Source: a virus
Virus record (IMG/VR): IMGVR_UViG_3300022204_000004
Coordinates: 1-64,000 of that record
Reading direction: 5' to 3' (one strand)
DNA length: 64,000 nucleotides
Position 1 is the first letter of the stretch; each line of letters opens with the position of its first letter. Below are positions 4,001 through 28,478 of the stretch, in pieces. The notes under the pieces were generated by a model. That model saw only the letters and a list, made by a program, of their open reading frames with translations, was not told the origin of the DNA and ran no database searches. The position numbers were made by a program, and so were the translations under genes.

Positions 4001-7000
4001 AGAACAAAAATTAATTGAGGAAGAATTAAAAAACATATACAATGAGAATGTTTTAAATACAAACACTCTTGAAGCCAATCTTATAGAGGCTATATATGGT
4101 TCTACTAGCGACGAAGAAATCACACAAGATGAAGTCGATGCTTATCTTTCTCTTTCTAAAATGGAGCTTACTGTAGGAGTTACTAATTTAGATAGAGCAA
4201 GAGTTTTGAACAATCATTTAAAAGCTTTGTTTCCTGATCAAAAAATTCAGGCTTATGCTTTTAGAAATCTTGTTTTGGCATTAGGCGGAGAACAAGCATT
4301 AGGTTATGCTTTAGGTTCAGCTATTCTTATTGATGACAAAGTTTGGAACCAAGAAGATATATACATGCATGAATTTGCACACATTTATTATGCAGCCAAT
4401 CCAAATTCTGAAGAAGTAAAAGAACTTATTTCAAAAGCCAGAAGAAACAGAAAGCTTATTCAAGGTCTTTATCAGGATTATAAAGACGACATCAAATATG
4501 AATATACAAGTGGTCTGAACAAAGGAAAAACGTTTTACGGGAGAAGTAAAAACAATACAGATCTAAAGTTGATGTTAGACCAAAATCTAGCTAAGGAATT
4601 ACCTGAAGAACGACAAGACATTATTTTGGAAGAAGCTTTTGTCAATATGCTTCAAGGACCAATGTCAAAAAAATACAGTAAGTATTTTGACTTGAAATCT
4701 GAAAGTTTAAGACAAGCTCGTGCAAAAACTTTTTGGGGAAGGGTAAAAGCTAGATCGGAAAGAGCAAAATTGACCAACAAAAGGCTTCAGGAAAAACTAA
4801 ATGAAGGCACACCAAATACGTTTAGATCCAATGAAGAAAGGATAATGAGCAATTTTGTGGAAAGCATGAAAGGGAAAGACGTTACAAGTGTTGGTCGTCG
4901 TTCTGCTGGTAGGTCTTACAGTATAAGACAGCTACAAGGTCAAGAAAAAATAAAGGAAATGCACAACAAAGAGGTCAAAGGTCTAAGAGCTTTGGGAACC
5001 CCTTTGTTTGATGCTGTTGCGCAAGCTGACCTTGCTAGGGAACAAAAAGCTCAAGGTGTTTATGAGCCTGATGAAGATGGACCAATCATTAACATTGATG
5101 AAGACGAGCCTATAAATCCAAATATGCAAGTCGATGATGATGCTCTTTCTTTAGTTGAAGAAGCTGAAATCAATCCTTACGAAAAAAGATATGAGTATCA
5201 GGAAACGCGAATAGCAAAAAACATATCTTATTTTATTGAAGAAGAAAATAAAAGGGAGAATCGTGAACGTTTAAAATCAGCTGAACAAGGTATCCCTAAA
5301 GGCAGAAGAAGTCCTTACAAATTGAAAGACTTTAAGGATAAGCTTACCCAAATGGCTGTAGAAGAACCATACTATGCTGAATACGTGAGAAGTCTTGTTG
5401 AATCAGAGAACGAACAAGTTAAAAGGTTTGTTAAGTATATGCAAGACAACAACAGTAGTGATTGGGTTTCTAAACTAATATCAGCACATTTCATTTTTAC
5501 CAATTCAGTTGTAGTAAATACTAAAACACACATGGTTGGCGAAAAAGGAGATTATATTTCCAATATAGGTCTTTCAACAAATGAAGCTTTAAATATTGAA
5601 AACATATCAGGTCAAATCATTAAAGATGAAGATATTGTTGCAGAGGCTATAAACCGAATCAAACAATCACAAGATATTAATGTAGAGCTAACTCCCGAAG
5701 AATCTAAAGCAATCATATATGCTTACAGTAACAGTTATTTAGAGCCTGACATAATGATGTCTAAAGATACTTTAAGAATAGACGGAAACAACTATTCTAT
5801 AGAAGGCGGTATCAATTATGCTGTAAAAAAAGGATATCTGGACGTTCAAGAAGATGGTGATTACTTAAGATTATCTCGAAACACAAGATTTATAGAAGTT
5901 TTGACTGAATCATCAAGACCTTATAGTTCTTTAAGTGTCATTGAAGGACCAAGTGGAAATATGATGAGTTCTCGTATGACCAACTTTTTACTTAATAAAT
6001 TGGTTGCTGAAGTCAATCAGGACTTATCACAAATGAGTCGTGATGAATTTGTCAAAAAACATTCATTAAGACCTAAAGATGCACAAAGAGCTATAAGAGA
6101 TGCGAAATCAGTTGGAACAAAATTAGGTGAAGCTTATTTAGGTTCAAACGAATTAGCGGCAAGATGGTGGGATAACTACCATAATTTAGGAATAAAGCCA
6201 AATATCACTATGGATTTAGGTGATATAAATTTGATCAACAATATCCGTACAGATTTCAAAAACTCTACAGCAAGACAGCAAATGTTAAATGAAACATTAG
6301 CGTTTTTGAGCAATTATCAAGAACAGACCTATGATGGTTCTATGGATATTTTTGGCGATTCATCTCGTAAGTTTGGATTGAGTGTTCCAATGTATAAAGA
6401 ACAACTCTTTAACAGAGACAATACACTTACTGCAAATGGAGAGGTATTGTTAAAAAATGCCTATGGTATTTATTTGGCAACAAGAACAAAAGAAGATAGT
6501 CCTAATTATGATGATTTCATGAGACAAAATCCTTTGATTTCTTATGATACATTTAAAAATGGTTTTTATAAATCAGTAAAAACTTGGAAAGAATATCTTA
6601 CTAAAAATGCTGTTGATTTTTCATCTGTAACCCAATTCAGAAATCTTTATAAAACAGATAAAGAAGGAGTGGTTCTTCATGAACTTACACCAATGGCAGA
6701 ACAACAAATGAATGAGTTCTTATATAATAGAATTATTAACTCTTTCAATATTCAACAAATGTTTAGACCAGGTATCTCTTTAGATGCTCGTGTAAAAAGG
6801 AACAAAACTTTAATTGCACCTGTAATGGCTCTTCACAAAAATTTGAGACCTGAAAAGATATTTGTTCCAAACGAATACAAATACAGAGACGGAAGAATGG
6901 TTCAGAATGATTCTGGACAATTTATATTGAGTTCTGTTGGTGATGCTATCCGAAAAAGAACCAATGGCTCTTTGGATTTAGGTCATGGGTTTAAACTTTA

Positions 7001-10000
7001 TTCAGGTGCTATTGAACGTGACAATCCAAATTGGCAAGGTCAGTCAATAATGATGAAAGGTTATACAACTGAACTTAATGACGAAAACACAAGACCCGGT
7101 GGTTCACAACAAGCCCACAGACCATATTATGAAATATTAATTGCTCAAAAAGAGAAATTTATAAAATGGTGGAAAGAACAACCACAAAATGAAGGGAGAG
7201 ATTATATTGAAGAAGATATTTTTCTTGAAGATCCAAACTCTCTTAACCCTGTTTACATGGGTATCATTACTCCCGTAACAGCAGAAAAAGCCGAGTTGCT
7301 TACAAGAAAAAACATTGAAGGTATCAATGCTTTTGGAACATTAGACCAACTTGGAACTAAGACAGGTCGTTTGGTTTACGAGAAAATCCTTGACAAAATG
7401 TACTATTCAAAAGGACAGTACATAGGCACAAACGGTTCTAATTTTGGACCACAACAAGTCATGGATAAAGAAAACAATAGAGCTAAGTTTTCAATTCAAG
7501 CTATGAGTTCTCCTTTAGTGAACCAAAAAGGCGATAAATTAAAAAGAGCTTTAAAAGCACAAGAGTATTTAAGACAACAAAAAATGAAAGTATTGAGAAA
7601 GAAGATACTTTCTAAAATTGAAGGCCCTTGGGATCAAGCTTTCACAAAGCTTATCATTGATACAGCAAATCTTAAAGACTCCGATGCTTTCTCAATTCTT
7701 CAGTTTATTGATAAAAACATCAATGCACTTCCTTATTCCCCAGCAACGGGAACTTGGTCATTAGACCAAATAAGAAAGCTTATCATAAACAACGGAAACA
7801 ATCTTACCGTAGATGGAACTTACGGACAGACCATATCTGATTTGGGATATACGTTCACAAATAAACAAGGAGAGCCTAGATTTAGTGCTAGAGGTGATTC
7901 CGATGGAAATGCTTTACAGGACAGTACCGTAAAACGTAGAGGCAGACTACAAGGGTATCGCGTTGGTATTGATGGTAGAACTATTGCCTTTGAGGGATTG
8001 TTACCACAGTCTCAACAGAAGTCAGGGGTTAGGGCTAGAGAGCTGTTTGATGTTTCTACATTGGGGAATGCCAAAACTGCAAAAGCAGCCGTTACAGCGA
8101 AGCTAAACAACGATAAAGAACTTCGTAATGAATTAGGCTTTAGAAAACAAGTTGTTGATGAAAGAACAGCATTAACAAAAAAAACAGCTGAAATTTCTAA
8201 TTATGGAACGCCTAAAGTTGCTGAAAACTTTGAAAACCTTTCTGATTTTGTGGAACAATTCAAATACTATGATGAAGATGGAAATGTTGCCGGATATTAC
8301 ATTCCTGGTGAAAATGTATTGACAACAAGAATACCGCATAACGGACCCGCATTTATGGGTGTTATGGAAGTTGTTGGATTTACCACTTCGGGAGCTTCGT
8401 CTATTGTAGTTCCGTCAGAATACAAGAATATCATAGGTTCTGATGATGATGGTGATGCTCTATTTGTTTATAGAAAATCACAAAGTGAATTTTACAGTGA
8501 TTGGAATAAGGCTTTTGATATAATGGTAGACCAATGGTTGTCTCCCGAAATGAGAGAAACATTAGATACTGAATTGGATTTTGAAGAAGATACAAACTTA
8601 AGCCTTGACATTATCAATGCAGAGTTAGAATCCAATCAGCCTCTTAAAGATTTGATAGCTACTTATCAAGCTAGTGAACAAACCGAAGAGGATAAAAAAG
8701 CCTATAAAGAGGGAAGAAAAAATGTAGTTAAAAATCAAGAATTCCAAATACCTTTTGGAGTTGAGGAATTTGAATCTAATTTCAACAATTCTGTAGTGTC
8801 TAGATCAACTGTTGGTATAGCTTTTCAAGCCACAAGGGCAATGAACCAAATAGCACCATATAGACCAAGACTACACGTTAGAAGTAAAGAAGGTGTTGCA
8901 AGTCCTGTTGAAATAACATTAAGAGGTGGTCGTCAAGTAGGAAGACAGACTTCAAAAGGACTTATAACAGATAGAGGTTCTGGTAAAACTTCAAGGGTTC
9001 AAAAGAATACAGTTCAAGGAAACCGAGTTTTGGATAGTACCAAAAACAAACATGCTGACGGACTTTATTACAATCCAGCTACAATTATGTCAGCTGTTAT
9101 TTTGGAAGCCGTAGGTTTCAGTACTGAAGCTGTAGGTCTTTTGATGAATCACCCTATATCCAAAAAATACTATAGTGAATTGCTTGATAGTAGAAATGGA
9201 TATATTCCAAGACAATCAGAACAACAAGTGATCAAAAAATTAAGACTTGAAAACAAGGTATTAAATGAAGAATACTATAAAAATAGAGCGTCATTTGAAA
9301 TACAACTTTTTAGTCCTAAATCACCTGAATATCGTTCTGAAGCGAATGAAGCTCAAATTATTCAACTACTTTCTTGGCTACATAAAGTAAGTAATGATTT
9401 TTCTAAAATCAATAATATTACAAATGGTCATAAGGATATTAGTAGAAACCCTATTGTTCTTGAACAACAAATCGATGCTTTAAAGAAGTTTATAAACAAC
9501 CAAGATGAAACAAGCACGATAATCTTTGAAGAAAGAGAGCCTGAATTAAGTATCAGTAACAATCCTGAGCTAAATTCATACTTGGACGTTGCCCAAGAAT
9601 TTATAAAAATCCAAAAAAGAATAAACCTTGTTTTTAACGATAATGTTAGAAGCGTATTGGACTTTGTAAAAGCTGAAATTACTATTGGTGATTTAACGAA
9701 CACGCAAATAGAACATTTTACAGAATTGTTGAAACCGTTTCTTTACAGTAGATTTTTGGGAATTAACAATATTCCCTCAAAAACAATACAAGCAATGTTC
9801 TCTAAAAATGGTTCAAAAAAACTTAATATCGTTCAAGATATTAATGACTATTTTGAAGAATTGGAAGATGAAACATATAATGACACTGGTTCTGACAATG
9901 CTCTTAAGCGTTCAGTATTATGGAATGATGCAATATTGAGATCTGGCACATCTATAAGCTTGAAGCCGGGCTTTATAAACAATGCTCTTACAGCTGAAGA

Positions 10001-12995: not shown

Positions 12996-13008
12996 ATAAA
13001 CTGTTGTT

Positions 13009-13043
13009 AAAAAGCCCTCTAGTTAATTCTAAAGGGCTTTTTT
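13009..13043. terminator. Bidirectional intrinsic terminator between the RNAP gene and the replication module
   Basis: AAAAAGCCCT...AGGGCTTTTTT hairpin with A/T tracts on both sides, between convergent genes. Confidence 0.85.
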
Positions 13044-13048
13044 GTTTG

Positions 13049-13549
13049 TTATATACTAACAAGTTGAAGATTTTCTAAACATTCTTTTTTGATTTCTTCA
13101 GACATTAGTTCAGGATATTTAAACTTATTGCCCAAAGACTGTTCCATAGTGGTCGTTTCATCTGACCAACCTTGAAACTTATTGTCAAATAGAAGAACAT
13201 GTTTTTTGGTTTCAAGTTCATTCATAATGAATTTTAAACCCATAGGTGTTATTCTCCAAACTCCACTTGATTTTCTTATATCATCTTTTTCTATTTTTTC
13301 TTCAAGAAATCCCCAATGTCTTAAAAGAGTCCAATCGTGATTGTTTTGAAATCCTTGTTCTCTTAAAAATGATTTGACATTGACATAACTGAATTTGTTA
13401 TATTTCCAAATCTGATATAATGTTATTGCCATACCGGAATTAAGTTTCCGTTTGTAGAGTTTGACAAATTGACCACAGCACTCACAATGACTGCCTTTAA
13501 TAAAATTAATCCTTAAGCTTTGTTTAGCTTCTTTTAATGTGCGTTCCAT
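13049..13549 (-). CDS. Putative winged-helix DNA-binding protein with N-terminal CxxC
   Basis: CECCGQ...LRHWGFLEE...GVWRITPMG pattern. Start moved to MERTL, which follows an A-rich leader. Confidence 0.5.
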   Translation of the reverse strand: MERTLKEAKQSLRINFIKGSHCECCGQFVKLYKRKLNSGMAITLYQIWKYNKFSYVNVKSFLREQGFQNNHDWTLLRHWGFLEEKIEKDDIRKSSGVWRITPMGLKFIMNELETKKHVLLFDNKFQGWSDETTTMEQSLGNKFKYPELMSEEIKKECLENLQLVSI

Positions 13550-13584
13550 AATTTTTCTGATTTTTAAAGGTATTACTACCATGA

Positions 13585-13698
13585 TTAATAATTGGTTCCA
13601 AATAATATTAAAAGTGATATAATAATAACACTAATAATAAAAGAGAATAAAACATTACTTATTTCATGTCTCCAAAGTTTCTTTATTAATTTTTTCAT
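13585..13698 (-). CDS. Small single-TM protein (37 aa)
   Basis: Read by hand: MKKLIKKLWRHEISNVLFSFIISVIIISLLILFGTNY*. Confidence 0.6.
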   Translation of the reverse strand: MKKLIKKLWRHEISNVLFSFIISVIIISLLILFGTNY

Positions 13699-13708
13699 AT
13701 CTATTGTT

Positions 13709-13897
13709 TTAGTAGTTAAATATTTCAATAATAGCAATCGTTATAAAACTACTTAAAAAGATAAAAGCAAATATTACGCTTAATACAGCAGATATATCTT
13801 CTTCTTTTTTTGTTTTACATCCATTTGCACATATTAAACCAAATGCCATAAATCCCATCGCACTAAATAATATTATTAATACAAGTATATTTTCCAT
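13709..13897 (-). CDS. Small two-TM membrane protein (62 aa)
   Basis: Two hydrophobic segments; preceded by the junction repeat. Confidence 0.7.
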   Translation of the reverse strand: MENILVLIILFSAMGFMAFGLICANGCKTKKEEDISAVLSVIFAFIFLSSFITIAIIEIFNY

Positions 13898-13899
13898 AT

Positions 13900-14076
13900 C
13901 TATTGTTTTAGTAGTTGAATAATTATAAATATTGGGAAAAACAGAGGTATTACAATATGTTCCATAAGAACAACTACAAACCTTTGTTCTTCATTTTCTG
14001 CAGGATAAGGATATTTACAATGCACATAATATCCATAAGCTTGTCCAAGAACAATATAAAGTATTAGCCAAATCAT
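13900..14076 (-). CDS. Small two-TM membrane protein (58 aa)
   Basis: Read by hand: MIWLILYIVLGQAYGYYVHCKYPYPAENEEQRFVVVLMEHIVIPLFFPIFIIIQLLKQ*. Confidence 0.65.
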   Translation of the reverse strand: MIWLILYIVLGQAYGYYVHCKYPYPAENEEQRFVVVLMEHIVIPLFFPIFIIIQLLKQ

Positions 14077-14078
14077 AT

Positions 14079-14237
14079 CTATTGTTTTCGCTTTTTTCGA
14101 GACCTAATATTTTCAGCCCATTTTGTTAGTTCATCGCTTACGCCAAAACAGATGCGTATCCAATCTATTGCTATTTTTAAAATGATTAAAAACATTGCAG
14201 AACCTATAATAATTAATGCGATTTGAATACCTATCAT
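14079..14237 (-). CDS. Small single-TM protein (52 aa)
   Basis: Read by hand: MIGIQIALIIIGSAMFLIILKIAIDWIRICFGVSDELTKWAENIRSRKKRKQ*. Confidence 0.65.
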   Translation of the reverse strand: MIGIQIALIIIGSAMFLIILKIAIDWIRICFGVSDELTKWAENIRSRKKRKQ

Positions 14238-14239
14238 AA

Positions 14240-14527
14240 TTATTTGGATTTGATTTTTTCGTATAACTTCATATATAACATCATCAAATGATATGTTAGA
14301 TACTTTTGGTCAAAAGGAAGCTCAGCCGACCTTTTTAATTTTCTACGACCATCAGTACCTATAAATTCTAGTTCTATCGTTACCATACTGTTCTTTGAAG
14401 ATTCAAGAACGATAGGATAACATTTAATTCCTTTGGACAAGCATACGCTCATCGCTCGGAACTCTTCCTTGCTAGGACTATAATTGATTTTCATTTTATC
14501 AATCAAATGATCACTTTTGCTTCGCAC
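14240..14527 (-). CDS. Hypothetical protein
   Basis: Tightly packed in the leftward operon; the start may be the internal MKINY. Confidence 0.6.
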   Translation of the reverse strand: MRSKSDHLIDKMKINYSPSKEEFRAMSVCLSKGIKCYPIVLESSKNSMVTIELEFIGTDGRRKLKRSAELPFDQKYLTYHLMMLYMKLYEKIKSK

Positions 14528-15194
14528 TATAGGTATTTTTAAGAAGGTTTTCTATATAGGTTTTTCTTTTCAAGACATATTGTTCCATGCTCTGAATAGG
14601 AAACCTAATTCTTCTTTGTTGTCCTCCGCCATCTGTCAAAAGATAGCGTTGAGGAACAAAGGTCTTGCAAAACAAAGCCACAGTATAACCTGCTCCAGCC
14701 ATAGGAATAGGAATGACCTTATTTATATATCTACGATACCTTTCCCAAATAATCCTTTGTTTGATAGGAAAAGAAACCGCAGAACTGACCTTGCCCCCTT
14801 TTTGTTGAACAGCCGAAATAGGCTTAACATCTACATAAGAGACAACTTCAGGAGGAAAACCCTCTTTCAATACCGATTGGTGTGCTATAAAAACAGGCTT
14901 TCCAAACGAAAATATGCTACCCTCAAGCACCTCTTCATAAAAAAGGTACTCCGCAGTTGTTGCCCATACAATGATATAATCGTAAGTATAGGTTATCTGA
15001 TTGAACAGATTAAAATCCTCTACTTCCTTTTCCTTTCGCTTAAATCGTTTATAACGACCATAAGTTGCCGGACCTATAACAGAGATTGTTTCGGGCTCTC
15101 TCTTATAGTATTTAATATATCCTGCTTGCTGCATTTGGTTTAGCCACCATTGAAAATAGTCCTCAATAGTGTTGGTTTCCGTTTTTTTAGCCAT
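14511..15194 (-). CDS. PD-(D/E)XK-type nuclease (DUF1064-like)
   Basis: ITYTYDY...YVDVKP motif spacing typical of YTxDF...VDVKG nucleases. Confidence 0.55.
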   Translation of the reverse strand: MAKKTETNTIEDYFQWWLNQMQQAGYIKYYKREPETISVIGPATYGRYKRFKRKEKEVEDFNLFNQITYTYDYIIVWATTAEYLFYEEVLEGSIFSFGKPVFIAHQSVLKEGFPPEVVSYVDVKPISAVQQKGGKVSSAVSFPIKQRIIWERYRRYINKVIPIPMAGAGYTVALFCKTFVPQRYLLTDGGGQQRRIRFPIQSMEQYVLKRKTYIENLLKNTYSAKQK

Positions 15195-19402: not shown

Positions 19403-19530
19403 TCAATTACCAATTCATTAGGCAAAGCGAACAAAGCAATCCTATAACATCGTTTTTCAAACTCTTCCTTGGATTCATCTGGATAGCTAATAATAGAACC
19501 TCCTTGATAGCCTAAACTTGCTTTAAACAT
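19375..19530 (-). CDS. Small hypothetical protein (51 aa)
   Basis: Read by hand: MFKASLGYQGGSIISYPDESKEEFEKRCYRIALFALPNELVIEKKELNLTK*; its start overlaps the end of the MTase gene. Confidence 0.5.
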   Translation of the reverse strand: MFKASLGYQGGSIISYPDESKEEFEKRCYRIALFALPNELVIEKKELNLTK

Positions 19531-20407
19531 TTTTATCTATCACAATGACTTTAGCACCTACAAGGGTTCCTGAAGATTTAAACGAACCTCTTTCGATGTC
19601 CATGATATGTGCACCAACAGATTGAAGCCAATATCTAAAATCAGATTCTTTTTGATTATTGGAAATTTCCCAATGTTCTGAAGCTACGGAAACCAATCTA
19701 CCATTATTTTCAAGACGATCGTACATATGTTGTATGTGGTCAATGTCCTGATTTTTTGTAAATGGTGGATTAGCTATAATCCTATCAAACTTACTACCAC
19801 TCCATTCAAGAAAGTCAAACTCTCGTTTTATTACAACGTCTTTATGTTGATATTTCTCTTTAAGGATTTCTGTGTTGGTTCCCATTAATTCTATAGCAAA
19901 AATCTCACGATTGCCATGTCTTCTATGGATTGCATCAATAATGGCTCCCTGACCGGCACTTGGTTCAAGAACTGTTGACCAAGGCAGAATATCGGCAAGT
20001 TCTACAAGCCAATCAGCAATTTCATCAGGAGTTTCAAAGAACTGAAATTCTTTCTTTAGATTGATTTTCTCGCCATTTTGAACCCTACCGAGTAACTCAC
20101 TAGGGTCTGTTGGAAATACGTGTGCTTTGGCACTTCTATTCCATTTACCGCCTATACCAACAAGTGCTTTGTTTACTTGTTGATATAAGGCTCTGTCTAA
20201 TTGTTGTGGTAGGTAAACATTGTTACCCTCGATGCGACATGCATCAAATACTTCCTGCGTTGTTTGCATTTTTTTATTTATTAAAAAAGTTAAATAGCTA
20301 GGGAAAGAGTCGCCTTTATTATATCCCAATACCTTGATTTGGTATTCTCGTTCTGCGATAAGCTCAAGTAATGACTTGCCTATACAAATTTCTTCATATT
20401 CAGTCAT
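19523..20407 (-). CDS. Orphan N6-adenine DNA methyltransferase
   Basis: FQFFETP, VLEPSAGQGAI (motif I), IIANPPF (motif IV). Confidence 0.85.
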   Translation of the reverse strand: MTEYEEICIGKSLLELIAEREYQIKVLGYNKGDSFPSYLTFLINKKMQTTQEVFDACRIEGNNVYLPQQLDRALYQQVNKALVGIGGKWNRSAKAHVFPTDPSELLGRVQNGEKINLKKEFQFFETPDEIADWLVELADILPWSTVLEPSAGQGAIIDAIHRRHGNREIFAIELMGTNTEILKEKYQHKDVVIKREFDFLEWSGSKFDRIIANPPFTKNQDIDHIQHMYDRLENNGRLVSVASEHWEISNNQKESDFRYWLQSVGAHIMDIERGSFKSSGTLVGAKVIVIDKNV

Positions 20408-20537: not shown

Positions 20538-22022
20538 TTAGAATGGTACATTATTGTCCTTATCAGGAACGTTAAGTGATATTTGATTGCTTTGAGGTGG
20601 TGGTGGTGGAACCTTTGCACTTGGTGCTGTTACAGGAATGATGTCATAAGAGCCAGTATAACTGTAAGCACTTATGGTCATTTGAATAGCATCCAAAAAT
20701 ATGTGAATGGTTGTTGTACCCAAATCTCTACCTTTTGCAAATATGAATTCAGTATGGAAAAGTTCAGAATAAGGAATTGTCGCTCCGGGCAAGTCCTTGT
20801 CATAATAAGCTTGTCTATAAAGGAATACTGCAATATCTGCATCTTCCTCAATACTTCCCGATTCTTTTAGATCCGATAGCATTGGTCTTTTATTATGTCT
20901 GCTTTCCACACTTCTGTTAAGCTGAGATAATGCTATGACGGGAATATAATTTTCCTTTGCCATAGACTTACATTCCCTTGAAATAAGAGTTATCAGTATT
21001 CTGGGATCCATTTTACCTTCTTCCGATTTACATCTTTGAATGTAATCTATGAATACGGCTTTGACCCCTTTATCCCTGACATACTCTTCGGTCTTTCTTG
21101 AAATTTCCTCAATGGTCGTTACTTTGTCCAATATGAAGAAATACAAGCTGTCATCAATGAACTTGCTACAAGCTTCTACTCGTTGCAGTTCTTCGTCTGT
21201 AAGCATTCCTGCTTTTATTTTCTTATACGGTATCTTTGTCTCTAATGATATTATTTTAGATTTTAATTGATTCTTAGGCATTTCCAAAGAAAAGAACAGT
21301 ACGGGATTTCCCAACTTGGAAGTTTCCCAAGCGGATATAAGAGCAAAAGTTGTCTTACCCATACCCGGTCTTCCCGCAAGAATAATCAGTTCGCCAGGTG
21401 AATAACCACTCATGAAATCATCAATGACCTCAACAGTGGTCGAAACCCCAACGGATTGTCCTACTCTTTGTTTTGCTACTTTTTGCCTAATTTCAGCGTT
21501 ATAATCGTTTTCCTCTACGGTTTCGTTTCTCTTTAGGTTAATGGTCATTCTCTCGAACAGACTATTGTATTCAGCAATAATATTATCGCTTACCTGAAGA
21601 ACATCTCTACCGTTCCAATTTCCATAAAGCACATCATGAGCATTCCAATTCCAAAAGTCCATTATTACGTATTGCTTTAAAATAAAAATATCATGTTCCA
21701 AAGTGTTTATGGAATATGTACCAGCAAAAAGAACTTTAGCCAATTCAATTTCAAACTCTTTGTAATTATTCAATCTGTATTTCTCAGGTCTAAACTGACC
21801 AACAGCAACAACCGTAGGAACGGCATTTTGTTTATAGCACTCAAAGATCGCAGAACAAATGTCCTTATGGGCTTCTAATCTAAAATCCTTAACCCTAACG
21901 TTATGTGCTTCAACTATACTCCTTACCTCAGTATCTCGGTCAACATTCATTATTGTACCAAGTATCTGTGCCTCGACTTGATATCGATGGTCGATATCAT
22001 AGTTGTTATATTCATTTATCAT
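20538..22022 (-). CDS. dnaB: Replicative DNA helicase, DnaB family
   Basis: AGRPGMGKT, FSLEM, FIDYIQ, SQLNR, SDLKESGSIEEDAD; N-terminal EAQILG domain. Confidence 0.95.
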   Translation of the reverse strand: MINEYNNYDIDHRYQVEAQILGTIMNVDRDTEVRSIVEAHNVRVKDFRLEAHKDICSAIFECYKQNAVPTVVAVGQFRPEKYRLNNYKEFEIELAKVLFAGTYSINTLEHDIFILKQYVIMDFWNWNAHDVLYGNWNGRDVLQVSDNIIAEYNSLFERMTINLKRNETVEENDYNAEIRQKVAKQRVGQSVGVSTTVEVIDDFMSGYSPGELIILAGRPGMGKTTFALISAWETSKLGNPVLFFSLEMPKNQLKSKIISLETKIPYKKIKAGMLTDEELQRVEACSKFIDDSLYFFILDKVTTIEEISRKTEEYVRDKGVKAVFIDYIQRCKSEEGKMDPRILITLISRECKSMAKENYIPVIALSQLNRSVESRHNKRPMLSDLKESGSIEEDADIAVFLYRQAYYDKDLPGATIPYSELFHTEFIFAKGRDLGTTTIHIFLDAIQMTISAYSYTGSYDIIPVTAPSAKVPPPPPQSNQISLNVPDKDNNVPF

Positions 22023-22030
22023 CTCATAGT

Positions 22031-22279
22031 TTATTTGTATTTATGATATTGGCATCTGTAATTACCTTTATCGGTTATTTTATAATTCCAATTCCAACAT
22101 GAACGGATGAGTTTCTCTCTATAAAACATAGAAACATCACCAATACTATTGTGGCGACTATATTGACAGACACGTTTCCAAAACTGTTTAAGAGTTTCTT
22201 CTTTGTATTTGTAATACCTTATTCTCATATTACCAAAATTTGCATGATAATCTAAGTCCTTGTCATCATTCTGGTTCAT
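22031..22279 (-). CDS. Hypothetical protein
   Basis: Operon packing between ThiF and DnaB. Confidence 0.5.
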   Translation of the reverse strand: MNQNDDKDLDYHANFGNMRIRYYKYKEETLKQFWKRVCQYSRHNSIGDVSMFYREKLIRSCWNWNYKITDKGNYRCQYHKYK

Positions 22280-23013
22280 ATCTTATTTGTTTTAACGTTA
22301 ATAGGATTTAAGCTAAAATATATCTGACTTTGCAGTATATTGAAATCAAGCAACAGTGATGACAGCATTTCTAAAGCATACACGCCTGTCAGCTTGTTTA
22401 TCATAAAGCTTTGCTCTCTAAGTGAAGCACGAAGAGAACAGCTTGGTTCGTTGACCTTATCTTCCATATTTGGGTGTAGGTCAATAATACTTGGTAATAT
22501 CATTTTTGTTTCTTTACCATAGGCACTTAAAATTATTTGTCCATAATCTCTTGAATTACCACAATCAATCCAATAATGTGTTCTTTGTTGACCATGATAA
22601 TTCCCTTTTTTGCCATTTTTCTTAATGGCTTTATCAATTATCTTTCTTGTCCTGACATTATCAACACAAGAAATAACAATGTTATATTTATCTCTTTCCA
22701 AATCTTCACCTGAAAAGGTTTCATTTCTAAATTCCACATCTGTTCCATAGGCTCTATTGACCCTATTGACCAATGTTTCGGCTTTTGATTTACCAATGTC
22801 AGAGGGAAAGAATTTCTGCCTACCAACATTATGTTCTTCTACAATATCATCATCATAGACAATGATTTTCAGTTCCTTTCTGTCAAGTATCTTCAATGTA
22901 TTTGACAAAGACACCAATTCGGGAAGAACAAAGCTTCCGGTTCCACCCACACCTACAAGAACAACCGTTATTCTATGTACGGGATTTACGATATAATCAC
23001 TTGTGCACAACAT
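22276..23013 (-). CDS. PRTRC system ThiF-family (E1-like) protein
   Basis: GVGGTGS, DDDIVEEHNVGRQ, CVDN, DCGN and PSCS (putative catalytic Cys). True start is MLCTSDY at 23013. Confidence 0.9.
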   Translation of the reverse strand: MLCTSDYIVNPVHRITVVLVGVGGTGSFVLPELVSLSNTLKILDRKELKIIVYDDDIVEEHNVGRQKFFPSDIGKSKAETLVNRVNRAYGTDVEFRNETFSGEDLERDKYNIVISCVDNVRTRKIIDKAIKKNGKKGNYHGQQRTHYWIDCGNSRDYGQIILSAYGKETKMILPSIIDLHPNMEDKVNEPSCSLRASLREQSFMINKLTGVYALEMLSSLLLDFNILQSQIYFSLNPINVKTNKI

Positions 23014-23698
23014 TTCTAAGATATTTATTAAGTGGCAACAGTTCTTTTGATGGAAACCGTGTTTGGTTTTCGTCTTTGATAAGACTTTCCAATAACGGTA
23101 GAGTTGGAGATTTCGTTCTTCCAGCAGCGTAATCTGTAGTGAATGTTGAATTGAAGAAACCATCTTCAACCATTCTCATTATTTTTTCATAGCTGTTGTT
23201 GGAAGTGAAATTCTTAATATCCATAGTTCCCCAACATAAGTTTTCGTCTTTCTTAATGTTAGGAAAAGGAGCTTGGAACAAAGGCGTATATTCATCGATA
23301 TTTGTTGTCTTTACAGCATAGATATAAAGCTCATTGTTGCTCAATCTAAATATCAAATGAGGATAGAACAATCTTCCCTTTACCTTTTTGTACTTAATTT
23401 TTCTGAGCATACCTTTACAAAACCAAGTAATTCTTGGAGATAAGGCATTTGGATCAAAGTGAAGTACATTTCTTGGTATCATTCCCGTAAAGACAATCTT
23501 TCGGTCTTCACTTTTGACCAATTTTGTCTTTACTGTATTGAATAGTTGGTCTAATGCTTCATAAGAAACAGGTTTGTAGCTTTGAGCCACATCGTTTACT
23601 ATTTCAGCATATTCAGTATAAAAACCATTTCTACTCTTATAGAACACCATATTGAAGAACGGTTTTAAAGGTTCTTCGTCAATTTGTGAAACAATCAT
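22997..23698 (-). CDS. PRTRC system protein B (prokaryotic E2-like)
   Basis: YPHLIF...PLFQAPFPNI...LCWG...FFNSTFT signature; directly upstream of ThiF. Confidence 0.85.
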   Translation of the reverse strand: MIVSQIDEEPLKPFFNMVFYKSRNGFYTEYAEIVNDVAQSYKPVSYEALDQLFNTVKTKLVKSEDRKIVFTGMIPRNVLHFDPNALSPRITWFCKGMLRKIKYKKVKGRLFYPHLIFRLSNNELYIYAVKTTNIDEYTPLFQAPFPNIKKDENLCWGTMDIKNFTSNNSYEKIMRMVEDGFFNSTFTTDYAAGRTKSPTLPLLESLIKDENQTRFPSKELLPLNKYLRNVVHK

Positions 23699-24680
23699 AT
23701 TGCTTAAAGTATAATTTAGTTAATTTGTTAATTCTCTCTTTTCTGCTTTCAATAGCTTGTTTGCTTATTTCAACACCAGGTCTATATAACAATACAGAAT
23801 AAGCTCTCTCGGTTATCATGTTTTGCCCCATTTGGTCCATATTGTAATAAATGTATGAATCGTATGCAGAACCCTCAAGGTCTGTATCATATTCATATCT
23901 AAAATGAAACAAGTCCTGAAGAGCTAAATAAGTTTCTTGTCTATCTTCATCAGAAACATTCAATGGAACCATATCATTAAACTTGCAACCACTGTTAAAA
24001 CTGTCCAAGGCATCATAAATAAACTCTTTCCATTTAGGATGTTTCTTGACCATTTTTTTAACGTATTTATCATCAAATTCAAAATAATTCCCTTTAGGAA
24101 TTCTCTTGAGATAAGGTCTAATGATTTTTGTATAAATCTTATAGGCAAAGTAGTCATTGGAATGGTCTTCAAATGCATAATCACTTTTGGGATCTTGTAC
24201 TTCCCAATAGATTTCATAAGCCATTTCCATACAACTTTCATGTATATAGTTGTCAAATAGACTGTGACCACACCAATCAAGATTAGCCAATATCTTTAAA
24301 AGAAAATCTGTAAATTCTTCATCTTTCCTTTCTTTAATAAAAGCTTTGATTGGTATAGAACCACTATCATATTCATTACCGGCATCCAATCCGATAACAA
24401 ATACATTGGCCACATCTATTTCATAGGTATTGTCTTTCTTAACGATAAAACGTGAGAGCAATAAAATACAGTCATTCAAAGAATCATTTTCAAAAAGCAT
24501 AAGGTCATCAATGCTATCATCAATGTCTTTGGCAAATCGATAAAGATTTTTGATAAGACGTATTTTTTCTTCTCGGTCATGGTCTTCAAGCCAGACAACA
24601 CCTTCTTCAGCTCCTAAAGTAATACCCTTATAGAAAGGAATTACGTTAAAACTATTTCGTTTGAAGGTATTTTGTAACAT
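23679..24680 (-). CDS. PRTRC protein F-like (positional)
   Basis: Acidic ~330 aa protein immediately upstream of, and overlapping, protein B, as in Bacteroidota PRTRC cassettes. Confidence 0.45.
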   Translation of the reverse strand: MLQNTFKRNSFNVIPFYKGITLGAEEGVVWLEDHDREEKIRLIKNLYRFAKDIDDSIDDLMLFENDSLNDCILLLSRFIVKKDNTYEIDVANVFVIGLDAGNEYDSGSIPIKAFIKERKDEEFTDFLLKILANLDWCGHSLFDNYIHESCMEMAYEIYWEVQDPKSDYAFEDHSNDYFAYKIYTKIIRPYLKRIPKGNYFEFDDKYVKKMVKKHPKWKEFIYDALDSFNSGCKFNDMVPLNVSDEDRQETYLALQDLFHFRYEYDTDLEGSAYDSYIYYNMDQMGQNMITERAYSVLLYRPGVEISKQAIESRKERINKLTKLYFKQYDCFTN

Positions 24681-24802
24681 CCGTCTTTTCTTGTTTTTTG
24701 AAGCGTTCTTAATAGTTCTTCAGCATCTAAATTGCTTGCTACACAATTATCGTTTTTACTGTCTATATTCTCAATATATTCAGCTATGCTTATCTTTTTC
24801 AT
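24641..24802 (-). CDS. Small hypothetical protein (53 aa)
   Basis: Read by hand: MKKISIAEYIENIDSKNDNCVASNLDAEELLRTLQKTRKDGCYKIPSNEIVLT*. Confidence 0.5.
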   Translation of the reverse strand: MKKISIAEYIENIDSKNDNCVASNLDAEELLRTLQKTRKDGCYKIPSNEIVLT

Positions 24803-25139
24803 CTATGATTATTTTATATTCATGTATGCCTATGATTTTACCAAACGAATTATTATTAATGAGTTTATCCGTAAAGTGGTCATAAGCTTCCATATTTATA
24901 AATTCATGCCATCGAGTATCGTAAACACCATCTTTCTTAATGGTCATCTTTACTTGCACTCTATTGTTGTCTTTTACTATAATCCTCTTAAATGGAGTAT
25001 AGTTTGTATTCATCCATGAATGACCTTTTGAATGAAGAAAATCCCAAATGGCTTCATCATTCCAATCACTGTCTATTTCGTACACGAATACGTCATCAAA
25101 GTGACTATCGGTAACAAGTATGGTTATCAAATATCCCAT
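24780..25139 (-). CDS. Hypothetical protein
   Basis: Operon packing. Confidence 0.6.
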   Translation of the reverse strand: MGYLITILVTDSHFDDVFVYEIDSDWNDEAIWDFLHSKGHSWMNTNYTPFKRIIVKDNNRVQVKMTIKKDGVYDTRWHEFINMEAYDHFTDKLINNNSFGKIIGIHEYKIIIDEKDKHS

Positions 25140-25363
25140 CAGTTTTCGTTTAAAATGATTATTTGTTCTAATTCTATTAAAATATTTATCAGTTTTTCTT
25201 TAATCTGATAAAGCCTGATAACATCTTTATCGTTAATTCCCTGTTTCATTGGATCTATGTTGTCATACATCACTTTGCACTGGGCTACCATGTCTTCGCA
25301 GTCAAAGGCATTTCCTAAGCCTCCATATAATTGCGACTCTTTTTCGTTAGCTAAATTTGGCAT
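25139..25363 (-). CDS. Hypothetical protein
   Basis: TGATG-type stop/start overlap with the next gene. Confidence 0.6.
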   Translation of the reverse strand: MPNLANEKESQLYGGLGNAFDCEDMVAQCKVMYDNIDPMKQGINDKDVIRLYQIKEKLINILIELEQIIILNEN

Positions 25364-25380
25364 TTCTTTAATGATGCAAT

Positions 25381-25432
25381 AGGGATAAAAAGATACACCC
25401 CCCTAAAGGGAGGTATATCCTATCCTTATCCT
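25381..25432 (-). terminator. Long hairpin/terminator after the DUF932-like gene
   Basis: - strand GATATACCTCCC TTTA GGGGGGTGTATC TTTT. Confidence 0.65.
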
Positions 25433-25436
25433 TATA

Positions 25437-26513
25437 TTAAATTGAAGCGATTTTTCCAGCTAATTCGTCAAGCTCTTGTTTCCGTCTTTCACCAATGTCA
25501 TTGCTGACAGCTGTAATAGCTTGTGAAAGCTTCCATCTGGTAGGAGCACCTACTACACCTTGACTTGGATCACTTTGAAGTAACTTGGTCTGTACCAAGC
25601 TTGTTTCTTCTTTTGTGAATCCCATTCGTGGAAGTTTAATGATTTCCTTGTCAATGTCAATCATTTCATGACTTGCTTTATACACGTTCTGAACTGTTTC
25701 CATAATTCTGTTTGGAGACAGTACACTTACCATGATATCGTCTATAGCACTTGCCATAGCACGAGTATCTAATGTATAGGTTCGTTCACTGAAATTGATA
25801 TCGTCAGGAAGACGTTTGCCCAAATGTATCTGTTTCAGTAAAGTATCTGTAACCATACCGTTAAGACAAGCAACGTTCATTTGAAAGGCTCTTACACCTA
25901 AAGCACCATCACCATAATCACTATTGCCAATACGAGCACCAAAGACAGAATAAACGTTACCGTTATTCGGTGTCTCAATGGTATATACTCTTGGTATGAT
26001 AGTATGGATATAGCTTTTGGTTTCACTATAATAAGCATCATAAATGACTGCTCCCATATTATGACAGCCTTTGATAAAAGACTCATAAATCTCATTAGAG
26101 TTTAATCGTCTGTACTTGTCACTTAAAACAGCTCTTGTTTCATCTCCAACTGTTCTAACTAACAGTCTGTTACGGTCAATGTTTGCTGAATGTTCCGTAA
26201 GAACATTGTTTAGCAACTGTCTTCCCCAATCGCTTTCGTTTAAATAACCAACATACTTTCTTGGTATATTGAACTTATCACCTAATTGCATTAGGGCATG
26301 CGGGTGTATCTGAAATTGAGAATCATCAAAGTTCATATACATTTTTCCGTTCGCATTGAACGTAACATCCATATTGGAACCCAAGTTCACAATATAATCT
26401 GTCAATAGAGAATTGTCTCTTTCTATTCTTTCCAAAACAGATTGATTTTTCCCTGTTCGCTGACTCAATAAGTGGTCAACTTTGTTCTGAAGAATTTCTA
26501 CTTCTGCATTCAT
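25437..26513 (-). CDS. DUF932-like phage/plasmid protein
   Basis: RAVLSDKYRRLN, NSDYGDG, VACLNGM, IHLG, WKLSQAIT motifs. Confidence 0.7.
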   Translation of the reverse strand: MNAEVEILQNKVDHLLSQRTGKNQSVLERIERDNSLLTDYIVNLGSNMDVTFNANGKMYMNFDDSQFQIHPHALMQLGDKFNIPRKYVGYLNESDWGRQLLNNVLTEHSANIDRNRLLVRTVGDETRAVLSDKYRRLNSNEIYESFIKGCHNMGAVIYDAYYSETKSYIHTIIPRVYTIETPNNGNVYSVFGARIGNSDYGDGALGVRAFQMNVACLNGMVTDTLLKQIHLGKRLPDDINFSERTYTLDTRAMASAIDDIMVSVLSPNRIMETVQNVYKASHEMIDIDKEIIKLPRMGFTKEETSLVQTKLLQSDPSQGVVGAPTRWKLSQAITAVSNDIGERRKQELDELAGKIASI

Positions 26514-26515
26514 TG

Positions 26516-26731
26516 TTATTTATTTAAAGGATTAATATTAAATTGATTTTCTACAAATATCAATGCACCGTTTTCTACGGCTTCATCAATTTTGCAGTCA
26601 CATGCATTATCTTCTACATTGAGTTGCCAATCTACCTGATGACTTTCGTCATAAGCAAATACTGCATGTGTTTTCCATACTTTCTTTGCTTCTTCGGGAG
26701 TTATTTCGCTCCATGTACTATGAAATGCCAT
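26516..26731 (-). CDS. Hypothetical protein
   Basis: Operon packing. Confidence 0.6.
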   Translation of the reverse strand: MAFHSTWSEITPEEAKKVWKTHAVFAYDESHQVDWQLNVEDNACDCKIDEAVENGALIFVENQFNINPLNK

Positions 26732-26858
26732 GTTTTTGTCTTTTAAATTTCTTCATTGCTGCTTTTACTGTCGTACTCCAGCCTTTAGGCTTGTAAGAGC
26801 CATCGGTAATAAGAGTTTCAAGAAACCCTGTACGTTTGCATTTTCTGAATACTTTCAT
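26718..26858 (-). CDS. Small basic protein (46 aa)
   Basis: Read by hand: MKVFRKCKRTGFLETLITDGSYKPKGWSTTVKAAMKKFKRQKHGIS*; first ORF after the terminator. Confidence 0.55.
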   Translation of the reverse strand: MKVFRKCKRTGFLETLITDGSYKPKGWSTTVKAAMKKFKRQKHGIS

Positions 26859-26880
26859 TGTTTTTGCGAGTTATAAAATT

Positions 26881-26910
26881 AAAAAAGCCATCTGAATAAA
26901 CAAATGGCTT
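26881..26910 (-). terminator. Intrinsic terminator
   Basis: - strand AAAGCCATTTG...CAGATGGCTTTTTT. Confidence 0.75.
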
Positions 26911-26921
26911 TGTGTTAAAAC

Positions 26922-27191
26922 TTAGTGAACGACTTTAGTGACATGCAATAAGTTCATCAAATTATCCAATCCACTTCTTGATAAATAAGGATAATTTTTA
27001 GGGTCTTTATGTGGCATTTTAACCATTGCTTCATAAGGAAAAGCAAAGGTTGATTCTGCCATCATTCCTGTGGAAACCCTTATGGATATGCCATTTTCAA
27101 ATGTGAAATCAGCATACTCGTTGAGCTCTGTATAATTCTCTCCAAATTCTGTTGTATATCTTTTGAATGTAAGTCTTTGGAAAAAATTCAT
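26922..27191 (-). CDS. Hypothetical protein
   Basis: Start MNFFQ lies 1 nt after the Ubl stop. Confidence 0.6.
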   Translation of the reverse strand: MNFFQRLTFKRYTTEFGENYTELNEYADFTFENGISIRVSTGMMAESTFAFPYEAMVKMPHKDPKNYPYLSRSGLDNLMNLLHVTKVVH

Positions 27192-27192
27192 A

Positions 27193-27402
27193 TTAGCCTT
27201 TTGTTCCAAGGTTCTTACTAAACTCATATACAGCTTTATCATTCTCAATCTTTGGACCTGTTACAGATGCATTCAACAGTTCCGGATGTTGATTGGAATA
27301 GATTTCCATAATTGCTTCAGGAGATAATGACGGATCTATATCCAACAAAACTTCCTTGTTGTACTTGAACTCTCTAACGAGTTGTTTAGATGTTACTGCC
27401 AT
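27193..27402 (-). CDS. PRTRC system protein C (ubiquitin-like, C-terminal Gly)
   Basis: LVREFKYN...LLDIDPSLSPE...YSNQHPELLNASVTGP...YEF...GTKG*. Confidence 0.9.
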   Translation of the reverse strand: MAVTSKQLVREFKYNKEVLLDIDPSLSPEAIMEIYSNQHPELLNASVTGPKIENDKAVYEFSKNLGTKG

Positions 27403-27404
27403 AT

Positions 27405-28478
27405 TTAAGATTGTTTAACTCCGTTTTGTAATATATGATTTTCTAAGAACTTAAGACTTTCCTCATTCTGTTCATCTGCAATAGAATCAGGATTGAAACC
27501 GTACTCAACAGCAAGTTTCTTTAGGTCAGCAACACGTTCTGCCATAGTTTTAACCTTTGGTGGTTCTGGCATCGCTACAGGTGTAGGCACTGCAACCGGT
27601 GTTGGAGGAACAAATGCGGGAGCAAGTTCCTTCTCTTCACTGAAACTAATGTCATTCCCTAAGTCTTTGAACTCACTGAATGACATTGTTGGTTTTGGTG
27701 CTTGTGGCTCTATAAACTTCGGTTCTACGGGCTGTAACGAACCATTGCTCTTGTTTATATTTGTTTTCAAATCTTGAAAGCCACGTTCAAATTCTGCCAT
27801 TGTTGCTTTCTCTACATAAGCTATCGAAAGTCCAATACCACCTCTTACATATTGTTTCTCTTCTTCTTTTTTAATAAAACCAAGAGCTATAAGCCTTGCT
27901 TCTCTTTCCAAAAAGAGTTTAGATGGTTCCATTGCTTGTTCCTTTTGTTCAACTTCCATAGCTTCAACATCTTCTTTAGGAACAATAACTTCAGTAGCTG
28001 TAAGGGTTGCCGATGTTGTAGACATTCCTTGCACTGGAGCACCACGCTCAGGAACAGTTGCAAACATATCCAATGTTTCAGGTTCTTTAGGTTTTACAGG
28101 TTCTTTAGGTATATCAACTTTAATTTCAGTCTGTTTGGACGTAGTTGTTTTAGCCTCTGTTTTACCTTTAGCCTTTGACTTTGGCTTGGCCGCTGCTTCA
28201 CTAGAAGCTTTTTCTGCTCTTTTCAACGATTCCTCAACAAAGGCTATACGCTCAATAGGAGACAAGCTTCTACTGACCAGCTGTGTAATGGTCGTTAAAA
28301 ATTCAGCATCAATCTCTTCAGGTTTCCCTGAAATACGAATAGGAGCTATGTTCAAGCTTTTGTCGTCTTTATCTTTTACGATAAAGAAAACAATCACTTC
28401 CATAAGTCCATCGTCTTTGGTCTCAATGACCAACTGAACTTTTGCCTTTTTGGCAATAGGATTTAATTCGTTTAACAT
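27405..28478 (-). CDS. PRTRC system protein E with long C-terminal extension
   Basis: N-terminal PIRISGKPEEIDAEF signature, then K/P-rich linker; directly upstream of protein C. Confidence 0.8.
   Translation of the reverse strand: MLNELNPIAKKAKVQLVIETKDDGLMEVIVFFIVKDKDDKSLNIAPIRISGKPEEIDAEFLTTITQLVSRSLSPIERIAFVEESLKRAEKASSEAAAKPKSKAKGKTEAKTTTSKQTEIKVDIPKEPVKPKEPETLDMFATVPERGAPVQGMSTTSATLTATEVIVPKEDVEAMEVEQKEQAMEPSKLFLEREARLIALGFIKKEEEKQYVRGGIGLSIAYVEKATMAEFERGFQDLKTNINKSNGSLQPVEPKFIEPQAPKPTMSFSEFKDLGNDISFSEEKELAPAFVPPTPVAVPTPVAMPEPPKVKTMAERVADLKKLAVEYGFNPDSIADEQNEESLKFLENHILQNGVKQS

Follow-up and report, generated by a model that had tools for sequence, protein, structure and literature searches.

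PRTRC, the ParB-Related, ThiF-Related Cassette (NCBIfam TIGR03734-03742), corresponds to operon type 6d of Iyer, Burroughs and Aravind (2006, PMC1779556), whose definition includes a JAB peptidase that carries a JAB-N domain and is either fused to the E1 or encoded next to it. A canonical example is plasmid pBB2 of Cupriavidus necator, with the order ParB-E-C-F-B-A-ThiF, in which protein C is a ubiquitin-like protein (Ubl), protein B is an E2-like carrier and ThiF is an E1-like adenylating enzyme. PRTRC genes have also been reported in Burkholderia phage BgVeeders33 and in prophage AB2, the latter described as complete, with A, F and ParB (PMC13366799), and protein B is reported to be a recurrent mutational hotspot in a Phocaeicola vulgatus prophage with a diversity-generating retroelement (bioRxiv 10.64898/2026.10.01.756045). 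We analysed a cassette of this kind in a 64-kb stretch of DNA from an uncultured phage (the window; positions 1 to 64,000 of IMG/VR record IMGVR_UViG_3300022204_000004). The record itself is 76,921 bp long, and all statements of absence made below cover this full length. We observed that the cassette is a divergent, split and trimmed member of the catalogued and already phage-associated PRTRC group, and its novelty is modest. It consists of protein E, the Ubl, a protein that we call X, the E2 and the E1. Judging from its sequence, it probably specifies a working, protease-less Ubl conjugation pathway of the PRTRC type, vertically inherited in a probably virulent, distantly crAss-like phage lineage.

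The E1 (about 35% identical), Ubl, E2 and protein E are homologous to those of the canonical cassette, the genes follow the same order, E-C-(F position)-B-ThiF, and in both a mostly helical protein lies between the Ubl and the E2. However, the window cassette has neither ParB nor protein A, the protein in the F position has no detectable similarity to protein F, and the Ubl is without the extension that follows KG. When set against the definition of operon type 6d, the JAB peptidase is absent, and the E2 has the Cys but not the downstream His. The other phage-borne examples (BgVeeders33, AB2, the P. vulgatus prophage and Ralstonia phage Dina, which has an annotated PRTRC ThiF) also carry E1, E2 and Ubl genes. 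These are, however, temperate phages of Proteobacteria or gut Bacteroidota, and the E1s of the proteobacterial phages are less than 30% identical to the window E1. The Bil system (BilABCD) and Cap2/Cap3 of the cyclic-oligonucleotide-based anti-phage signalling system (CBASS) are alike in the proposed chemistry (adenylation by the E1, thioesters on E1 and E2 cysteines, and transfer to a target), but the similarity is limited to the generic Rossmann fold of the E1, with at most 28.7 bits to Cap2-type models and 18.8 bits to BilD. Unlike Bil and CBASS, the window cassette has no CD-NTase, JAB or Cap3, its E1 and E2 are separate proteins, and it lies in a phage rather than in a host defence island.

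The closest likeness was to a JAB-less cassette of Bacteroidota genomes and proviruses (loci L028-L031 and about 55 IMG/VR contigs). This cassette has the same five families in the same order, a Ubl that stops at G[TV]KG, and neither a JAB gene nor room for one between E2 and E1; in one subclade a DUF932 gene is also nearby. In the E1 tree, the window and its relative L002 were placed on a long stem inside the clade of IMG/VR and Bacteroidota cassettes (98/92 support), which was separate from the proteobacterial plasmid cassettes. The exact sister group of the window E1 is unsafe, owing to this long branch. The window cassette differs from the Bacteroidota one in being split by 2.2 kb (7.5 kb in the related locus L003), in having an extra gene for an 89-amino-acid (aa) protein after the Ubl, in an X protein that is detectable by profile-profile comparison only, in Thr replacing a His of the E2, and in a protein E that is twice the usual length and without the acidic tail. 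The carriers differ as well, since an integrase-less, distantly crAss-like phage is found here and a provirus there.

We searched the window open reading frames (ORFs) with the TIGRFAM PRTRC models, and E1, Ubl and protein E all scored above the curated cut-offs (Table 1); the E1 reached 183 bits in the whole-genome search. Together with the ORF list, these family searches bore out the genes named in the first-pass annotation, along with their positions and common orientation on the minus strand. The motifs quoted there are also real, i.e. GTKG followed by TAA in the Ubl, VGVGGTG and PSCS in the E1, and APFPNI...LCWG in the E2. The E1 retains GxGGxGS, D54, D56, N62, R65, Q66, K77, D118 and Cys192 (of PSCS), and these are invariant across the E1s of phage and Bacteroidota cassettes. 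The end of the Ubl at GTKG-stop, without extension, is of the G[TV]KG type common to nearly all cassette Ubls.

In protein E, the family match is confined to the N-terminal residues 1-105/117 of 357. This PRTRC_E domain is followed by a low-complexity middle rich in Lys, Ala, Pro and Glu and by a C-terminal part without family; no sequence relative was found in the PDB. In most of the IMG/VR homologues of protein E (L035-L099), a low-complexity linker joins the N-terminal domain to a C-terminal tail that is strongly acidic, with runs of Glu and Asp. A few have Q-x-S-L-F-like endings, namely QTSLF in L066 (7434-7904), NQNSLFGGE in L053 (4165-4713) and QQPGLFT in L075 (6592-6969). Such endings look like SSB-type tails and sliding-clamp-binding peptides, although this is a resemblance only. 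The window protein E has neither the acidic tail nor the clamp-like ending.

When the E1 profile was compared with PDB sequences, the ubiquitin-type E1s UBA6, UBA5 and UBA3 were the best matches, followed by Cap2 and then by ThiF. This order bears on the suggestion that E1 and Ubl act in sulfur-carrier chemistry, like ThiF-ThiS or MoeB-MoaD, and form a thiocarboxylate for cofactor or nucleic-acid modification. The E1 is a member of the ThiF/MoeB superfamily and weakly matches the ThiF and MoeB models, and the Gly end of the Ubl is like that of sulfur carriers. However, the E1 profile is nearer to the ubiquitin-type E1s and Cap2 than to ThiF, the cassette has no rhodanese domain or sulfur-transfer gene, and a Cys-bearing, UBC-like partner is conserved. 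We consider a sulfur-carrier role very unlikely.

The UBC-like partner is the E2-like protein, which scored well above the cut-off of Prok-E2_D (Table 1). An alignment of 32 sequences showed that Pro144, Asn147, Cys155 and Gly157 are kept, with Asn147 and Cys155 invariant. The spacing from Asn147 to Cys155 is 8 residues, and the same spacing is seen in the HPN...Cys site of classical E2 enzymes. The AlphaFold2 (AF2) model of the protein, with a predicted local distance difference test (pLDDT) value of 85.6, shows a UBC-like core preceded by an extra N-terminal domain (approximately residues 1-62). UBC enzymes made up nearly all of the 30 best VIA-align matches of the model, with UbcH10 first (Z 5.7, 118 residues, 3.9 A), and the bacterial CdnG-E2 and BubCD were also among the structural matches. 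As modelled, the core is of the UBC/E2 fold; the loop that follows the beta-meander holds the Cys, and the conserved Asn lies 8 residues upstream. A homologue search with the E2 protein returned only the query itself.

The gene between the Ubl and the E2 had been called 'F-like' in the first-pass annotation. This label is right as to position, since annotated protein F fills the place between Ubl and E2 in Cupriavidus pBB2, but descent from protein F found no support. The protein F model TIGR03742 had no match in the whole genome at E<=1, nor at E<=10, and hhalign gave a probability below 1% when the X and 333-aa families were compared with four proteobacterial F-position proteins, the F profile being thin at 4 sequences. 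In the Bacteroidota genomes and the IMG/VR cassette contigs, a gene of 360-415 aa, which we also call X, was always present between Ubl and E2. No significant pairwise match to it was found with BLASTP, while hhalign connected the 333-aa family to this X family with 96.6% probability (E 5.3e-10, 235 columns). This profile-profile comparison makes the 333-aa protein a strongly diverged homologue of the X gene of Bacteroidota and phages, and the phage therefore holds the complete five-gene core.

X had no family in Pfam, NCBIfam, PHROG or PADLOC, and a full HMMER search among 1.8 billion representative proteins found 17 clusters of its family. The AF2 model (pLDDT 82.8) was mostly alpha-helical. 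Foldseek gave no PDB match at E<=0.001, and the best VIA-align match was a helical hairpin (Z 4.1); a missing PDB match does not show a new fold. A complex prediction of E2 with X scored 0.00, which says nothing either way. The few conserved residues of the 333-aa X family are Tyr47, Pro215, Phe220 and a near-invariant Cys330. The last of these, three residues short of the C-terminus, is part of a Y-E/D-C-F/Y motif, and this ending is not obviously shared by the Bacteroidota X proteins.

We also looked for the missing PRTRC partners. There was no match at E<=1 to PRTRC protein A (TIGR03735) or to Prok-JAB (PF14464), and the PF14464 control search was positive in 11 of 14 genomes. PRTRC ParB (TIGR03734) likewise gave no match at E<=1; of the 14 control genomes, 9 had ParB-like genes by this search. 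Protein D (TIGR03739) was also without a match at E<=1. The first-pass annotation had described a phage-borne PRTRC-type Ubl/E2/E1 cassette lacking a JAB peptidase, ParB and a ParM-like protein in the window. Our searches support this description, and the absence of the JAB peptidase, ParB and protein D extends to the whole genome. As the E2 and E1 reading frames overlap, there is no room for a JAB gene between them.

The Ubl had been thought to be made in its finished form, and the comparison of its end with those of other cassettes agrees with this. In plasmid cassettes with a JAB gene, the Ubl runs on beyond KG (3 further residues in Cupriavidus, approximately 55 in Xanthomonas), whereas it stops at KG in the JAB-less cassettes of a Pseudomonas IncP-type plasmid, of Vibrio pSEA1 and of the window phage. 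Among 60 Ubl ORFs of IMG/VR, 59 end in Gly and one in KA. The presence of a JAB peptidase thus appears to track the C-terminal extension of the Ubl, and the relation is clean in this small sample (plasmid loci L113, L115, L116 and L117; n=2 for JAB-containing cassettes). Since the Ubl of JAB-less cassettes ends at KG, no processing protease would be needed. The Pseudomonas IncP-type plasmid has kept ParB while the JAB gene is absent.

The IMG/VR record is linear and 97% complete (CheckV). The portal matched phrog_6547, and the large terminase, which matched phrog_6681, shares approximately 25% identity with the terminases of crAss-like gut phages as well as of phages of Flavobacterium and Cellulophaga. 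The record yielded no tyrosine integrase. Because of these matches and the missing integrase, we treat this 77-kb phage as a distant crAss-like relative that is probably virulent and probably has a host of the Bacteroidota type. The cassette region had no megablast match in INPHARED, and none of the 8 tblastn hits of the E1 there was a catalogued Crassvirales genome. The full stretch was present in one sequencing run only, a sediment metagenome from which the DNA may itself have come.

Two IMG/VR relatives (L002/G002 and L003/G003) have the layout E-Ubl-p89 (p89 being the 89-aa protein), a 7.5-kb insert, X-E2-E1 and then DnaB. The G002 portal is 65% identical to that of the window phage, which places the two in the same phage lineage. 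The cassette ORFs of G002 are intact and in the same split layout, and DnaB is 46% identical and syntenic in L003. Between the window and G002, the identities were 68% for the large terminase, 64-65% for the portal, 61% for E1, 56% for Ubl and 46% for DnaB, and lower for p89 (44%), E2 (36%), protein E (approximately 29%) and X (23%). By these values, E1 and Ubl have been conserved to the same degree as the packaging genes, and E2 and X belong to the shared genes that change fastest. The difference suggests that the target is selected by E2 and X. A portal-based search for further relatives found only fragments of 12-20 kb, and the related-locus searches gave 3 loci in genome contigs and 6 in metagenome contigs, one of which was the L003 contig. 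The alignments of E2 and X were too variable to seed a profile scan.

From the gene content, family membership, catalytic residues, UBC-like fold, synteny and conservation in the relative, we infer the following chemistry. The Ubl would be translated in its mature form, ending in Lys-Gly. The ThiF-type E1 would adenylate Gly69 and load the Ubl onto Cys192, from where it would be handed to the carrier Cys155 (Cys165-equivalent) of the UBC-like E2, 8 residues after the invariant Asn147. It would then be attached to a lysine on a target protein, which would be chosen by the fast-evolving E2 and X, perhaps together with protein E. As there is no JAB peptidase, the phage itself should not be able to remove the tag. 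The role that we prefer is that the cassette helps to establish the element in a newly entered cell, where host or replication-fork proteins would be tagged early in infection.

Several observations weigh against such a pathway. The E2 scored 70.4 bits with the PRTRC_B model TIGR03737 (E 1.3e-19, over 199 residues), which is below the cut-off of 131.45, and the Bacteroidota genomic E2 copies were also mostly slightly below this cut-off. The downstream His of the E2-like protein was described as 'absolutely conserved' and considered part of the active site (Iyer et al., 2006, PMC1779556), and in the window as well as in L002/L003 this His (of ...SEFSH...) is replaced by Thr. Most cassette E2s have the His, and several further phage cassettes likewise carry another residue there. 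The structural matches of the E2 are moderate (Z of at most 5.7), though the list is homogeneous. X is without a known fold or motif that would account for its role, and no E3-like protein or deconjugating enzyme could be recognised. No RNA sequencing run is listed as containing the stretch. We found no paper with a biochemical test of any PRTRC cassette, and the function of PRTRC is stated as not studied in the report on BgVeeders33 and AB2 (PMC13366799).

The target step may take the form of counter-defence or take-over, in which host immunity or stress proteins are tagged and inactivated, an offensive mirror of Bil and CBASS-Cap2. The far faster divergence of E2 and X than of E1 and Ubl in one lineage is as expected of proteins facing a fast-changing partner. 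It could, however, also come from relaxed constraint. The protein B hotspot of the Phocaeicola prophage fits the E2 as the part that contacts the target, and all kinds of mobile element that have to become established in a new cell carry the cassette (plasmids, proviruses, phages with direct terminal repeats and the integrase-less phage). Against this, there is no known target and no match to an anti-defence or defence family beyond the generic E1 similarity. A paper on anti-defence genes of leading regions mentions neither ThiF, ubiquitin nor PRTRC. We regard counter-defence as a tentative possibility, on balance doubtful. A more specific proposal, that a probably virulent phage uses Ubl conjugation offensively, with E2 and X steering the Ubl irreversibly onto host immunity or replication proteins at an early stage of infection, appears unlikely to us. 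If true, it would be the phage-side counterpart of Bil and CBASS-Cap2 and the first function for a widespread cassette.

We estimated how widespread the cassette is. An E1-profile scan of IMG/VR found at least 133 relatives, and at least 55 of the 80 phage or provirus contigs that were fetched had the compact order E-Ubl-X-E2-E1 with abutting E2 and E1. In a set of 50 such records, 23 were at least 90% complete, approximately 20 were classed as provirus and 5 had terminal repeats; the Bacteroidota conjugative TraG was found in none of the 50. Terminase_6N was seen in 8 of 31 carriers and the HK97 capsid in 2, with at least 10 of the 31 having either, where these single Pfam models are only partly informative. 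Of 401 genomes sampled from the Bacteroidota phylum, 10 contained PRTRC_B (approximately 2.5%). E1 relatives were found in 424 PLSDB plasmids, and the JAB-less five-gene layout was also seen on Pseudomonas plasmids. The earlier statement that PRTRC is known mainly from plasmids and integrative elements was not borne out by the IMG/VR counts and the published prophage examples. PRTRC-type cassettes are among the most widespread predicted Ubl conjugation systems of bacteria and mobile elements, and in a streamlined phage without an integrase, what is left is a minimal core of E-Ubl-X-E2-E1 that lacks ParB and JAB. As the window phage is uncultured, culturable carriers are better suited for functional work.

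That most carriers are proviruses, plasmids or integrative and conjugative elements, many of them proviruses, would suit a defence or exclusion function borne by the element, directed at competing phages or plasmids and merely carried along in the window phage. The E1/E2/Ubl systems Bil and CBASS Cap2 are defensive as well. However, there was no PADLOC match beyond the generic E1 similarity, and the catalytic residues have been kept in an integrase-less, probably virulent lineage, inside a replication operon, which is unexpected for a gene that protects a lysogen. We give this explanation very little weight, and hold both it and the sulfur-carrier one to be less likely than counter-defence or a control of replication.

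A control of replication or partition, in which the Ubl would be placed on the helicase, clamp, SSB or ParB-type proteins of the phage or host and regulate DNA replication, is suggested by the neighbouring genes. The X-E2-E1 operon runs into dnaB in both the window and L003. Plasmid cassettes are flanked by DnaN, ParB and SSB, with the order DnaN-ParB-cassette-SSB in Xanthomonas, and the cassette of L031 has DnaN, a DEDD exonuclease and a Toprim primase as neighbours. The linker, acidic tail and Q-x-S-L-F-like layout of the protein E homologues also resembles that of replication-fork adaptors, again by resemblance only. However, replication genes are the expected neighbours of any early-region gene, and the window protein E is without an acidic or clamp-like ending. 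The phage also has no ParB, which is therefore not an obligatory partner. We think this function rather improbable.

The L031 locus (G062:C1:184000-203900), from a genome of the Bacteroidota phylum, has its cassette inside a replication block (4778-14898). The block includes the DEDD exonuclease, the DnaN-like clamp and a protein E whose N-terminus is extended by 140 aa. The E1 is followed by a 254-aa protein without assigned function and then by the Toprim primase-like protein. L031 may be an integrated phage or a plasmid-like element.

The coordinates of the cassette and its neighbours are given in Table 1. All cassette genes and dnaB are co-oriented, and the cassette is split into two transcription units, E-Ubl-p89 and X-E2-E1-p82, the latter leading into dnaB. 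A strong terminator-like hairpin ends the first unit and divides the two halves of the cassette. The insert of approximately 2.2 kb between them contains the DUF932-like gene, other genes and a second terminator-like site. In the first unit, protein E stops 2 nt before the ATG of the Ubl, and the ATG of p89 follows 1 nt after the Ubl stop. In the second unit, the reading frames of X and E2 overlap by 20 nt and those of E2 and E1 by 17 nt, the ATG of p82 overlaps the E1 stop (ATGA), and p82 ends 8 nt before dnaB. The genes of each unit are translationally coupled. A start of the E1 at TTG 23169 was rejected, and ATG 23013 is backed by the start of the homologue and by the register of the hidden Markov model.

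Table 1. Cassette genes and adjoining features, with positions in the window and the supporting matches.
Feature	Position	Strand	Evidence
PRTRC protein E homologue, 357 aa	27405-28478	-	TIGR03741 44.9 bits (cut-off 37.95), PF19556 36.3 bits (cut-off 26)
Ubl (PRTRC protein C / Prok_Ub), 69 aa	27193-27402	-	TIGR03738 77.3 bits (cut-off 45.95), PF14454 79.4 bits
p89, 89-aa protein without known family	26922-27191	-	44%-identical homologue, same position in L002/L003
Terminator-like hairpin, 11-bp stem then T run	26884-26911	-	sequence read
DUF932-like protein, 358 aa	25437-26513	-	phrog_1362 E 1.8e-64
X protein, 333 aa	23679-24680	-	hhalign to Bacteroidota/phage X family, 96.6%
E2-like carrier (Prok-E2_D / PRTRC protein B type), 233 aa	22997-23698	-	PF14460 79.5 bits (cut-off 25)
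E1-like adenylating enzyme (PRTRC ThiF), 245 aa	22276-23013	-	TIGR03736 182.6 bits (cut-off 144.75)
p82, 82-aa ORF without known family	22031-22279	-	ORF coordinates
DnaB-like replicative helicase	20538-22022	-	phrog_19 E 2e-74

Neither p89 nor p82 matched a family in Pfam, NCBIfam, PHROG or PADLOC. The Atlas showed no convincing relative of p89, and a p89 gene following the Ubl was seen in this phage lineage only. The p82 protein is rich in Cys, His and Tyr and had no homologue in L002/L003.

The 358-aa protein of the insert was placed by the Atlas among DUF932 sets (29 of the 30 nearest clusters, score 0.97, TM 0.94), and its pairwise BLASTP comparison with a true DUF932 protein gave nothing significant. 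The gene is a neighbour of the cassette and not a proven component. One subclade of the Bacteroidota and provirus cassettes has a true DUF932 gene (TIGR03299), located 0.7-3 kb upstream of the protein E gene. It was seen in 4 of 60 loci within the fetched flanks (L030, at 4727-5800, L078, L084 and L088).

Directly downstream of dnaB and co-oriented with it is a DNA methyltransferase-like gene (19523-20407, minus strand), with matches to phrog_9133 and phrog_15406. The window also contains a single ORF of 3,965 aa (1098-12995, plus strand), of which a 57%-identical fragment was also found in L003.

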